Virus record (IMG/VR): IMGVR_UViG_2703718871_000023
From: a virus
Taxonomy: Duplodnaviria; Heunggongvirae; Uroviricota; Caudoviricetes
Reading direction: 5' to 3' (one strand)
DNA: 3,361 nt
This document shows positions 971-3,361 of the stretch, in pieces (position 1 is the stretch's first letter; each line of letters begins with the position of its first letter). Below the pieces are notes generated by a model. It saw nothing but the letters and a program-made list of their open reading frames with translations, was not told the DNA's origin and searched no databases. The translations under genes were made by a program, and so were the position numbers.

Positions 971-1200
971 GCCAGGAAATCACACTACAACAGGCAGCAG
1001 AACGCGCCCACCAAATCGAAGTTATTTGCGCACTGGCAGAGGATTACCCTGGCATGATGACCGACAGCGAATCAGGGGCAATCATCGGCTTACTTAAACG
1101 CCTTAGCGGTGAGGTCTGCGTATTCCTGAGCGATGAACAGGAAAGAAGAACGCTTATTTCTAACGAAAAAAAATGCGGAGGGGTACACCATGTGCAATAA
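967..1200 (+). CDS. Hypothetical small acidic protein, 77 aa
   Basis: ATG 967 has GGGGG (955-959) 7 nt upstream. It is start/stop coupled to the ORF before it (ATGA) and overlaps the next gene by 11 nt. Translation MSQEITLQQAAERAHQIEVICALAEDYPGMMTDSESGAIIGLLKRLSGEVCVFLSDEQERRTLISNEKKCGGVHHVQ. No family recognised. It carries an A8 tract (1166-1173) near its 3' end. Confidence 0.5.
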   Translation: MSQEITLQQAAERAHQIEVICALAEDYPGMMTDSESGAIIGLLKRLSGEVCVFLSDEQERRTLISNEKKCGGVHHVQ

Positions 1201-1411
1201 CATCCGTCCGGACGCAGCCGCCGCCGCACTCACTACGCTGATGCACGCGCTTATTGATATTGAATGCACGGCAGAGCTTGCACAAAAGGAAGAACGGGAG
1301 GAATACACATTGTTCGCCCTGGAATGTATCCGATACACCGCCACGCGGTCGCTGAATGACGCTAAAAATATTCTTGTTGCAGATTGTGAAAATGGGGGGG
1401 GTTATGCGTGA
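1190..1411 (+). CDS. Hypothetical small protein, 73 aa
   Basis: ATG 1190 has a strong Shine-Dalgarno GGAGGGG (1177-1183) 6 nt upstream. The ORF-track start at 1133 has no RBS and would overlap the upstream gene by 68 nt. Translation MCNNIRPDAAAAALTTLMHALIDIECTAELAQKEEREEYTLFALECIRYTATRSLNDAKNILVADCENGGGYA. No family recognised. A G8 tract (1394-1401) sits at its 3' end. Confidence 0.5.
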   Translation: MCNNIRPDAAAAALTTLMHALIDIECTAELAQKEEREEYTLFALECIRYTATRSLNDAKNILVADCENGGGYA

Positions 1412-1868: not shown

Positions 1869-2168
1869 ATGAAACTTAAATATTCTGGCTTAACTGCCAG
1901 TGGCAACACTCACCCTAAATTTACGCGCGGTGATATTTACCGCGACCAGTACGGCGGTACGGTAATGATTAAGGGCGTGGCGGGACGGTGCGTAACTTAC
2001 CGCCGTGAAGGTTACGAATATGATTGCGTGATGCCTGTTTATCAGTTCCGGCGTGATTTTTCTCTGGTACAGACCGCGCCGCATAACGTGCCCACCAGCA
2101 GGGAGAAAGCACGCGCCAATATTCAGAAGATGAAAAACATGATTAACGGATTCAGGGGCAAGAAATGA
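1869..2168 (+). CDS. Small protein, 99 aa, possibly DUF4222-like (tentative)
   Basis: ATG 1869 with GGAG (1855-1858) upstream. Its stop TGA 2166-2168 overlaps the ATPase start ATG 2165-2167. Translation MKLKYSGLTASGNTHPKFTRGDIYRDQYGGTVMIKGVAGRCVTYRREGYEYDCVMPVYQFRRDFSLVQTAPHNVPTSREKARANIQKMKNMINGFRGKK. The core (YRD...G.V.I.GV.GR.V.Y.R.GYE..CV.P...F) resembles what I recall of enterobacterial prophage DUF4222 proteins; unverified. Confidence 0.6.
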   Translation: MKLKYSGLTASGNTHPKFTRGDIYRDQYGGTVMIKGVAGRCVTYRREGYEYDCVMPVYQFRRDFSLVQTAPHNVPTSREKARANIQKMKNMINGFRGKK

Positions 2169-3361
2169 AAAGCGCACCGAACTTAAAAAAACAGCCTTAC
2201 GACAAGATGACCGAAGTCATCATTTTTGCGGGTAGTGATGCGTGGGCACATGCGAAACAGTGGCAGGAACAGGACGGGCGACTGGCTGGCGATAATGTGC
2301 CTCCCATTGTGCTGGCTGATGATCAACTGGATGAACTGGCAGACCTGAGAATCATCGACGAGGGGCGCTATTGTGTCCGGCTGTACAAGGCAGGCCACAT
2401 CAGGCCATCAAATATTAATGCCATTGCGCACAAGCTGGCGGCGGCGGGCGTAACTGATGCGAATTATTACCCCGAAGGGATACACAGCCAGAAGCGGGAG
2501 AACTGGCGCGAATATCTGGAACGGGAGCGGGGGAAAAAGCCAGGGGAAGAACACCACCAGCGAAAAACCACGCTACCGATGAGCGTTGGATCTGCCGGAT
2601 ACGACACGCAATTAGATTACGTGGTAAAGGGGATTATTCCGGCATCGTCGCTTTGCAGCATATACGGGGCGAGCGGTTCCTATAAATCATTCCTTGCGGG
2701 TTCGTGGGCGTGTCACGTTTCCACGGGCCGCCAGTGGGGAGGCCGCAGGGTGGCGCATGGCGCTGTTCTCTATGTGGTTGGTGAAGGCGGTATCGGCGTT
2801 CCGCGTCGTGTAAAAGCCTGGGAGGTTGTGCACGGTGAGCAGGTGAAAAATCTGTATCTGGTAAACCGTCCCATCTTTCCGGCGGTCCCGCTTGATGTTG
2901 ATGAAATGGTTATCGCTGCCCGTCAGGTGGAGCGGGAAACGGGTAAACCTGTACGCATGATTATTCTGGATACGCTGGCGCGTTGCTTTGGTGGGAATGA
3001 TGAAAATGATTCCCGTGATATGGGGGCGTTTATCCGTGGTTGTGACGAACTGAAACGACGCACAGGGGCCACGGTGCTGGTGGTTCACCATTCCGGCAAG
3101 GATGAGACGAAAGGCGCGCGCGGTTCCAGTGCATTTCGTGCATCACTGGATGCTGAATACCGGATACGCAGGGAGGACGCAGGAAGCGAAGCGCTGGTTA
3201 TCTCATGCACCAAAATGAAGGACGCGGAGGAACTCAAAGAGGCTGCCTATGATTTGCGGGTGGTGGAGCTTTTTACCGACGCTGACGGGGAGTTAATCAC
3301 GTCGCTGGTGGTGGTGGATAAGCCGCGCCCTCCCGTTGAACTGGAGCGCATCGAGGAGGCA
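2165..3361 (+). CDS. RecA-fold replication ATPase (AAA_25 / RepA-like helicase-type domain), probable satellite replication or primase-associated protein; 3' end truncated by the window (399 codons, no stop)
   Basis: The frame is open from ATG 2165 (AGGGG 6 nt upstream) to the last base of the window, which is why the stop-delimited ORF track does not list it. Motifs: P-loop-like IYGASGSYKSFLAG (2660-2700), Walker-B-like MIILDTLA (2957-2980), and VLVVHHSGKDETKGARGSSAFRASLDAEYRIRRE, which resembles the RepA/AAA_25 sensor region. The first ~160 aa are an unassigned N-terminal region. Confidence 0.85.
   Translation, partial: MKSAPNLKKQPYDKMTEVIIFAGSDAWAHAKQWQEQDGRLAGDNVPPIVLADDQLDELADLRIIDEGRYCVRLYKAGHIRPSNINAIAHKLAAAGVTDANYYPEGIHSQKRENWREYLERERGKKPGEEHHQRKTTLPMSVGSAGYDTQLDYVVKGIIPASSLCSIYGASGSYKSFLAGSWACHVSTGRQWGGRRVAHGAVLYVVGEGGIGVPRRVKAWEVVHGEQVKNLYLVNRPIFPAVPLDVDEMVIAARQVERETGKPVRMIILDTLARCFGGNDENDSRDMGAFIRGCDELKRRTGATVLVVHHSGKDETKGARGSSAFRASLDAEYRIRREDAGSEALVISCTKMKDAEELKEAAYDLRVVELFTDADGELITSLVVVDKPRPPVELERIEEA

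Follow-up and report, generated by a model that had tools for sequence, protein, structure and literature searches.

Two homopolymers in a phage satellite of Escherichia coli raise the question of whether the small genes that meet at them are separate genes or pieces of one. The locus lies in the window, by which we mean the whole 3,361-nt stretch of DNA analysed here (IMG/VR virus record IMGVR_UViG_2703718871_000023). Four small open reading frames (ORFs), all on the + strand, overlap in it: gene A (967 to 1200; 77 amino acids (aa); phrog_1478), gene B (1190 to 1411, with its ATG at 1190; 73 aa; phrog_5146), gene C (1404 to 1637, with its ATG at 1404; 77 aa; phrog_24341) and gene D (1630 to 1863; 77 aa; phrog_2196). 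All four were taken from the ORF list and matched to PHROG families. A run of eight A (A8, 1166 to 1173, + strand) stands near the end of A and a run of eight G (G8, 1394 to 1401, + strand) near the end of B. An earlier note on this DNA had given both positions and had stated that the loss of one A or one G fuses the adjacent ORFs; the positions were confirmed in the sequence and the fusions by computed deletions. The note had proposed that a single gene of ~220 aa is split at the two runs, or that the runs are sites of transcriptional slippage or +1 frameshifting. We consider a different explanation probable, namely that A, B and C are separate genes, that the G run between B and C slips and gives rise to heritable alleles, and that this variation in length is a tolerated by-product.

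The length of the G run alters the encoded product. Computed deletion of one G in the window yields a continuous B-C fusion (...CENGGVMRDD...), and at the sequence level three states can be distinguished. At a length of 2 modulo 3 (G8, G11 and interrupted 8-mers), which is the state of the window, B and C are separate and B ends in GGGYA before its stop codon. At a length of 1 modulo 3 (G7, G10 and G4), a single B-C fusion protein is encoded. At a length of 0 modulo 3 (G9 and G12), B receives the tail LCVMIVLIP (...GLCVMIVLIP-stop) and terminates 27 nt inside C. IMG/VR was scanned with a DNA pattern in which the flanks were fixed and the tract was left free (n = 89 loci). G8 was the most frequent form (34 loci), followed by G7 (22), G9 (18), G10 (4) and G11 (2), and the tract was interrupted in nine loci (GGGGGTGG, GGGGTGGG, GGGGGGGGTGG, GGGGAGGGGGGG). 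By frame, 29% of these loci are fused, 47% are split and 24% are in the third frame. Among complete E. coli genomes sampled broadly (44 informative rows), 19 had G7, 14 had G8, ten had G9 and one had G10. Over all related loci, tract lengths of 4 and of 7 to 12 were found.

The states are reflected in annotation and in deposited proteins. Locus L004 has G7 and a single 144-aa B-C coding sequence (CDS), locus L002, a derivative of strain Nissle 1917, has A8 and G8 with all genes separate, and locus L001 (strain JNEC-KY202) has G12 and is labelled a 'frameshifted' pseudogene by the annotation pipeline PGAP. When a virtual A-B-C fusion served as the query of a protein search, triple fusions of 217-224 aa that occur in nature were recovered, including one present on 52 contigs, along with many natural B-C fusions of 144-155 aa, of which individual sequences occur on 152-258 contigs. 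The junction peptides of the fusions are CENGGVM (G7), CENGGGVM (G10) and CENGGGM; the last probably derives from G8 with one T lost. The ATG of C is retained in nearly all of the 120 proteins listed, and in at least five of them the Met of C, or the residue after it, is replaced (for example by Leu or Ile). The check that the earlier note had asked for, an alignment of homologous elements, thus gave a positive answer: the G tract varies between 4 and 12, and B-C, A-B and A-B-C fusions occur naturally in many genomes. In a diverged lineage of IMG/VR loci (L076, L077 and L079) the junction reads ...TGTGAATATGGGGTTATG..., a G4 tract at which B and C are joined in frame. These three loci have another sequence in place of the N-terminal part of B, and open frames of up to 509 aa continue into C; the 477-aa representative protein P0172 matches in the same way as this lineage. 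The fusion is fixed there without a long run, and in other lineages the split state is fixed by interrupted runs.

Comparison of closely related loci indicates that the G run is a slippage hot spot, which mutates fast relative to its flanks. When loci were clustered by 650-nt flanks differing by at most three bases, six of 11 clusters were polymorphic in tract length. The window's own cluster contains G8 (window), G9 (L042) and G12 (L001). Among the tips of a neighbor-joining tree whose nearest neighbour is at most 1% divergent, tract length differs in 17 of 29. At least 37 changes of length, against a mean of 37.3 for shuffled tips, are required on this tree, which was made from 85 unique B-C-D segments; the count is somewhat inflated by the collapsing of identical sequences, and recombination may contribute to it.

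The same genomes indicate that tract states are inherited within clones. All 17 of the 17 O157:H7-type rows sampled have G7 and are fused, and Nissle 1917 and its derivative both have G8. A direct comparison is provided by O157:H7 strain 3-5-1 (L188, NZ_CP038416.1) and O55:H7 strain DEC5A (L189, NZ_CP038394.1), in which the satellite adjoins phoQ. Over 3.1 kb the two differ by 4 single-nucleotide polymorphisms and by G7 versus G8, and the former carries one 154-aa CDS where the latter carries a 79-aa and a 77-aa CDS. Individual fusion proteins recur unchanged on 52-258 contigs, and the B protein of the window, in the G8 state, on 925. This clonal consistency and the contig counts ruled out sequencing error as a general cause, and the homopolymer errors considered by the earlier note do not account for the variation as a whole, since the states are inherited. 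The data argue for a slippage rate that is high compared with point substitution, yet with a consensus that is not scattered within a clone, and they point indirectly to a switching rate that is only moderate.

A run of at least 7 nt within coding sequence that differs in length among close relatives is also what is found at contingency loci. The poly-G run could accordingly have been kept for reversible switching between two separate proteins, their fusion, and a B whose tail is altered together with reduced C, and such adaptive phase variation would alter the response of the island to helper phages or its interference with them. Several observations fit: the tract has at least 7 nt in most loci, across B alleles that are 57-100% identical, the three frames are all common, tract state shows no correlation with how the flanks are related, and near-identical elements (window, L042 and L001) differ in tract length only. 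However, near-uniform use of the three frames is equally expected of neutral slippage, the consensus is stable within clones, so that the rate is not obviously that of a contingency locus, and alleles of both kinds have been stabilised (GGGGGTGG, GGGGTGGG and G4). Mismatch-repair-proficient E. coli is not known to use mononucleotide repeats as phase switches. We regard adaptive phase variation as unlikely, while giving it some weight. Were the junction a true contingency locus, the G7 fusion of all sampled O157:H7 genomes would represent one fixed phase, which we think rather improbable.

The anatomy and distribution of A, B and C argue that they are independent small genes and not one broken gene of 220 aa. 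From A to B and from B to C the downstream frame is shifted by +1 each time, with overlaps of 11 nt (A/B) and 8 nt (B/C), and each of the three has its own ATG and Shine-Dalgarno (SD) sequence. The SD of B is GGAGGGG (1177 to 1183, + strand), 6 nt upstream of the ATG at 1190, with a predicted anti-SD duplex of -10.0 kcal/mol. Gene A is an optional module that is missing from most related elements; in most related loci icd stands directly before B, which there has an ATG of its own after CAGGAGGTG or CAGGGGGTG. B and C, too, can be separated. In loci L058-L065 a variant of B ending in ...DVQEVHHA-stop is followed by a 127-aa gene (E) and then by C, which is preceded by G6-TAAAC-ATG, and the E/C overlap is the same ATGCGTGA that is found at the B/C junction. 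A 167-aa protein (P0182 and P0184) was noticed in which E is fused to C at ...VSRERLRDDRFNSLK...; it apparently arose by a deletion between the short repeats RLRDD and MRDD, so fusions onto C also arise by a route that involves no homopolymer.

Distant relatives show the same independence. A B-C profile was searched against 1.84 billion representative proteins, and 54 proteins matched. About 28 of the 54 contain B only (72-93 aa, several ending in ...HA-stop) and about 19 contain C only, with the Met of C as their first residue. Full-length B-C fusions were restricted to the closest clusters, and a few other proteins span the junction in part. The ratio of non-synonymous to synonymous substitution (dN/dS) is 0.38 for B and 0.32 for C, and B, C and D together range from 0.31 to 0.38 at a median dS of 0.4-0.7, which indicates purifying selection on all three. 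The exact proteins of the window occur on at least 1000 (A), 925 (B) and at least 1000 (C) contigs. With protein C as the query, a scan of genome contigs gave at least one locus in Shigella. Two further candidates were rejected. An origin of A-D as a tandem array of one small gene was excluded by pairwise hhalign comparison of the four, in which the probability was below 1% for every pair, and 'Icd-A fusions' of 153-155 aa from a protein cluster look-up proved to be the long icd-frame ORF.

These results bear directly on the proposal of a single ancestral gene, of ~220 aa for A-B-C or ~150 aa for B-C, that was broken by frameshifts and is now a decaying pseudogene or a product of sequencing or assembly error. 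In its favour, the allele with G12 in JNEC-KY202 is 'frameshifted' according to PGAP, B-C is treated as a single family of 154 positions in phrog_2512, and triple fusions exist. A single disrupted gene would have continuous distant homologues and fragments without starts of their own; what was found are stand-alone distant homologues of B or of C, other combinations of A, B and C, loci in which another gene separates B from C, and an ATG and an SD for each gene. Furthermore, the split state reproduces the ATGCGTGA overlap of C/D and E/C, the genes B, C and D are under purifying selection, the exact B and C proteins are widespread, and tract states follow clones. The single gene of the earlier note is already largely refuted by these observations, and we consider it extremely unlikely.

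The anatomy of the B/C junction suggests why a G run stands there. It encodes the last Gly codons of B (GGG-GGG-GGT) and lies 2 nt before the ATG of C. Its anti-SD duplex is the strongest of the window (-11.1 kcal/mol, first percentile), and the other genes of the operon have G-rich SDs 5-9 nt 5' of their starts. The G8 run is thus probably the SD of C, embedded in the 3' end of B, and the suggestion of the earlier note that it is the ribosome-binding site of the ORF at 1404 appears very plausible. The start of C and the stop of B overlap in ATGCGTGA (1404 to 1411, + strand), a canonical coupled junction at tract lengths of 2 modulo 3. The C/D junction (1630 to 1637) is the identical 8-mer, and distant B homologues end in ...IQEVGHA-stop, encoded as CAGGAGGTG..CATGC.TGA. 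An overlap of stop and start with an SD inside the upstream gene hence recurs at B/C, C/D and E/C and in homologues; the coupling itself is a prediction. Because of the shared ATGCGTGA overlap, His/Tyr-Ala-stop is a common ending among the small proteins of this operon family: C ends in ...SHA, B in ...GYA, gene E in ...KHA and distant B homologues in ...GHA or ...HHA. C and D both begin with Met-Arg-Asp, at identical ATGCGTGA overlaps.

The surroundings of the run are conserved. A block of ~75 nt (1374-1450), which reaches from the 3' end of B across the G run to about codon 15 of C, has a column identity of 0.93-1.0, compared with 0.64-0.9 in the rest of B and C, a difference that is partly imposed by the search pattern with which the loci were collected. 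What remains of this conservation could reflect a junction for module recombination or a constraint at the RNA level. In the minimum free energy fold, a 9-bp stem joins 1396-1404, where the G run is followed by UU and the first base of the AUG, to UAAUUCCCU at 1421-1429. Such a stem could hide the SD and start of C for as long as B is untranslated, a model unsupported by the folding statistics (z = -1.25). The hairpin region is too conserved for covariation.

The A8 run behaves differently. It lies in GAA-AAA-AAA (Glu-Lys-Lys) near the end of gene A, and computed deletion of one A gives an A-B fusion (...SNEKNAEGYTMCNNIRPD...); deletion of one A and one G gives a product of 222 aa. The run was A8 in 29 of 31 IMG/VR loci and A7 in two. 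Among complete genomes an exact 76-mer match containing A8 was found in 203 of 260, and the rows with A7 belong mainly to the O111 clone. In locus L003, which has A7, a single CDS of 145 aa covers A and B in the annotation; in the O111 genomes with A7 in RefSeq no feature is annotated over the sampled part of A. A8 is an ordinary stretch of Glu-Lys-Lys codons, in which a rare contraction to A7 is then inherited clonally. The earlier note had treated the two runs as paired junctions, of which one, the variable G tract, bears out the description; A8 is a nearly invariant pair of Lys codons. It had also argued that two such junctions are unlikely to be chance. In dinucleotide shuffles G8 appeared in 21 of 200 and at least two A8/T8 runs in 18 of 200, so homopolymers by themselves barely exceed chance. 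Any -1 shift within ~68 nt (1133-1200) or ~56 nt (1356-1411) would fuse the overlapping genes, and with intervals this broad the exact placement of the runs is less special than had been claimed. For the G run, though, there is an explanation of the placement in its role as the probable SD of C.

The two runs could alternatively be sites of programmed recoding, at which RNA polymerase slippage on A8 or G8, or a +1 frameshift on GGG-GGG-G, produces A-B and B-C isoforms. A -1 or +2 change at either run does join the frames, and the length of 8 in A8 is conserved in most elements. On the G run, a tRNA-Gly shifted by +1 could still pair without a mismatch. Runs of eight A can support productive slippage in some organisms, according to the passages on slippage in PMC1088944, in which bacterial selection against slippage is described as typically evident from 9 nt, a length that A8 does not reach. 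Programmed sites keep their length and keep the frames separate; here the G run varies in DNA from 4 to 12, fusions directly encoded in DNA are common, and A8 is fully explained by its Lys codons. Neither run has the form of a transcriptional slippage site, as the A run is shorter than nine and the G run is not a canonical motif. The conserved pairing of a slippery codon with a stop or slow codon that marks prfB-type +1 frameshift sites is lacking as well: the G run is followed by GGT TAT, neither a stop nor a rare codon. RNA folding is not significant around either run (z = -1.25 and +0.52), and since A is missing from most elements, an A-B isoform cannot be a conserved product. Given this variable length and the lack of flanking stops, rare codons and stable structure, slippage or frameshifting as put forward in the earlier note is very unlikely as a programmed mechanism; low-level adventitious slippage is possible.

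Taken together, the following mechanism for separate genes with a slipping G run is proposed. A, B and C would be translated by termination-reinitiation coupling, with each upstream stop overlapping the next ATG. The G run would be an SD within the 3' end of B, lengthened to the point where it slips in DNA replication. A run this long slips, and related elements would therefore carry heritable alleles of differing length. Since none of the three states removes the ATG or the SD of C, C is probably still made in each of them; this is plausible, and it would account for their all being common, with none purged. The length variation would then be a tolerated by-product and not a dedicated switch, and the junction appears to be an ordinary hot spot of mutation, not a novel way of coding.

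A number of points weigh against this explanation. It is an assumption that C is translated from its own ATG when the tract is in the fused or the G9 state. The split and the fused state are each fixed in some lineages and may be functional alternatives rather than neutral noise. The G run is long and uninterrupted in ~90% of loci in spite of the deep divergence of the B and C alleles (median dS ~0.7), and this persistence of a long pure run could mean that the hypermutable tract itself is selected; against such selection, the whole ~75-nt junction block is conserved and not the run alone, partly owing to the search pattern. Searches of A-D against Pfam, NCBIfam and PDB sequences gave no match, and in PHROGs the four matched families of unknown function only. 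AlphaFold2 applied to a natural A-B-C fusion (49 sequences) gave a poor model of helical hairpins only, with a predicted local distance difference test score (pLDDT) of 44 and a predicted template modelling score (pTM) of 0.31.

The genes around A-D place the junction in its context. By its gene content, the window is an AlpA-controlled early operon of a satellite of the phage-inducible chromosomal island (PICI) type of E. coli, in the order alpA, icd-like gene, the four overlapping small genes A-D, DUF4222 gene and primase/helicase gene. The operon starts with alpA (44 to 304, + strand), which encodes an AlpA-family helix-turn-helix activator (Pfam Phage_AlpA, E = 2.9e-16) and is annotated as a helix-turn-helix regulator in homologous loci; in the PGAP annotation its homologues start at the internal ATG at 80. 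The icd-like gene (770 to 970, + strand; NCBIfam phage_ICD_like, E = 2.5e-19) is annotated by PGAP in L001-L004, and its stop overlaps the start of A (ATGA). Downstream of D lie the DUF4222 gene (1869 to 2168, + strand; Pfam DUF4222, E = 2e-23) and the 5' part of the primase/helicase gene (2165 to 3361, + strand; Pfam AAA_25, E = 1.5e-43), which continues past the end of the window and whose homologues are annotated as 'DNA primase family protein' or 'phage/plasmid primase, P4 family'. No prominent promoter or terminator signals were seen inside A-D, which fits a single operon, and an Rfam scan for RNA elements gave no match. On the - strand the window contains a DUF3950 (YlcI/YnfO) gene (442 to 624). 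It is overlapped by a 218-aa ORF (314-970, + strand) that reads in frame into the icd-like gene; the plus-strand part of this ORF is a partial 'Icd-like' pseudogene in the PGAP annotation of homologues. A 99%-identical whole element is present in E. coli JNEC-KY202 (NZ_AP045178), where it is flanked by rcnR and thiM and contains int, alpA, icd, the small ORFs, primase, ssb and perC genes, followed by capsid, protease, portal, HNH and terminase genes. The presence in order of int, alpA and primase/replicase genes agrees in gene content with a PICI or capsid-forming PICI (cf-PICI), islands of ~10-15 kb that may or may not carry capsid and packaging genes.

The junction is carried by about 900 of 5426 complete E. 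coli genomes, and annotation pipelines disagree on it: some genomes show two genes there, others a single gene, a 'frameshifted' pseudogene or no feature. Treating the split state as canonical and the fusions as slippage alleles would settle this inconsistency. The locus also documents a mononucleotide hot spot of E. coli, in a widespread PICI early operon, at which three frame states are common and clonally inherited. If B or C acts in satellite induction or in helper interference, the O55:H7 (G8) and O157:H7 (G7) strains constitute a ready near-isogenic pair. If it were a contingency locus after all, the run would diversify clonal E. coli in the response of the PICI to helper phages or its interference with them.

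How does this junction compare with known systems? Programmed transcriptional slippage is represented by the A9 of Thermus dnaX, the T9 of Shigella mxiE and the A9 of insertion sequence elements, examples given in the slippage passages of PMC1088944. Such sites likewise have a homopolymer just 5' of where overlapping frames could join. They consist of at least nine A or T, are conserved in length and keep the frames separate in DNA; here, in contrast, the A run has eight nucleotides (Lys-Lys), the G run is variable in DNA, and the fusions are directly encoded.

The element as a whole resembles the PICIs and cf-PICIs of Enterobacteriaceae such as EcCICFT073 and EcCIEDL933 (10.1101/2022.09.08.507074), with which it shares int, alpA, small early genes and a primase/replicase gene; the closest full element also has the capsid, portal and terminase genes of a cf-PICI. 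The main text of that preprint was not found to describe the small ORFs between alpA and the replicase gene or homopolymer junctions, and literature searches turned up no paper on homopolymers or phase variation in PICIs.

The phase-variable genes with poly-G simple sequence repeats (SSRs) of Neisseria, Haemophilus, Campylobacter and Helicobacter are similar in having a strain-variable G run of at least 7 nt in coding sequence, whose length modulo 3 sets the C-terminus or a fusion. Repeats that switch a protein's C-terminus or fuse ORFs are among them (for example PMC2823697 and PMC5320596). The junction of B and C differs in that it occurs in mismatch-repair-proficient E. coli and in a phage satellite, that the tract doubles as the probable ribosome-binding site of the next gene, and that its consensus is clone-stable (O157:H7); the likeness is one of sequence.

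A structural parallel is offered by translationally coupled genes of phages and operons with ATGA- or ATGxxTGA-type junctions, where termination is followed by reinitiation. As in these, stop and ATG overlap (ATGCGTGA), the SD lies inside the upstream gene, and the design recurs within the operon and in distant homologues. The difference is that the SD has here been expanded to a slipping homopolymer, which makes the coupling junction genetically unstable. The locus reveals no new coding or regulatory mechanism; it is a well-populated new example of a known feature, a slippage-prone run at a coupled junction that gives heritable split and fused alleles.

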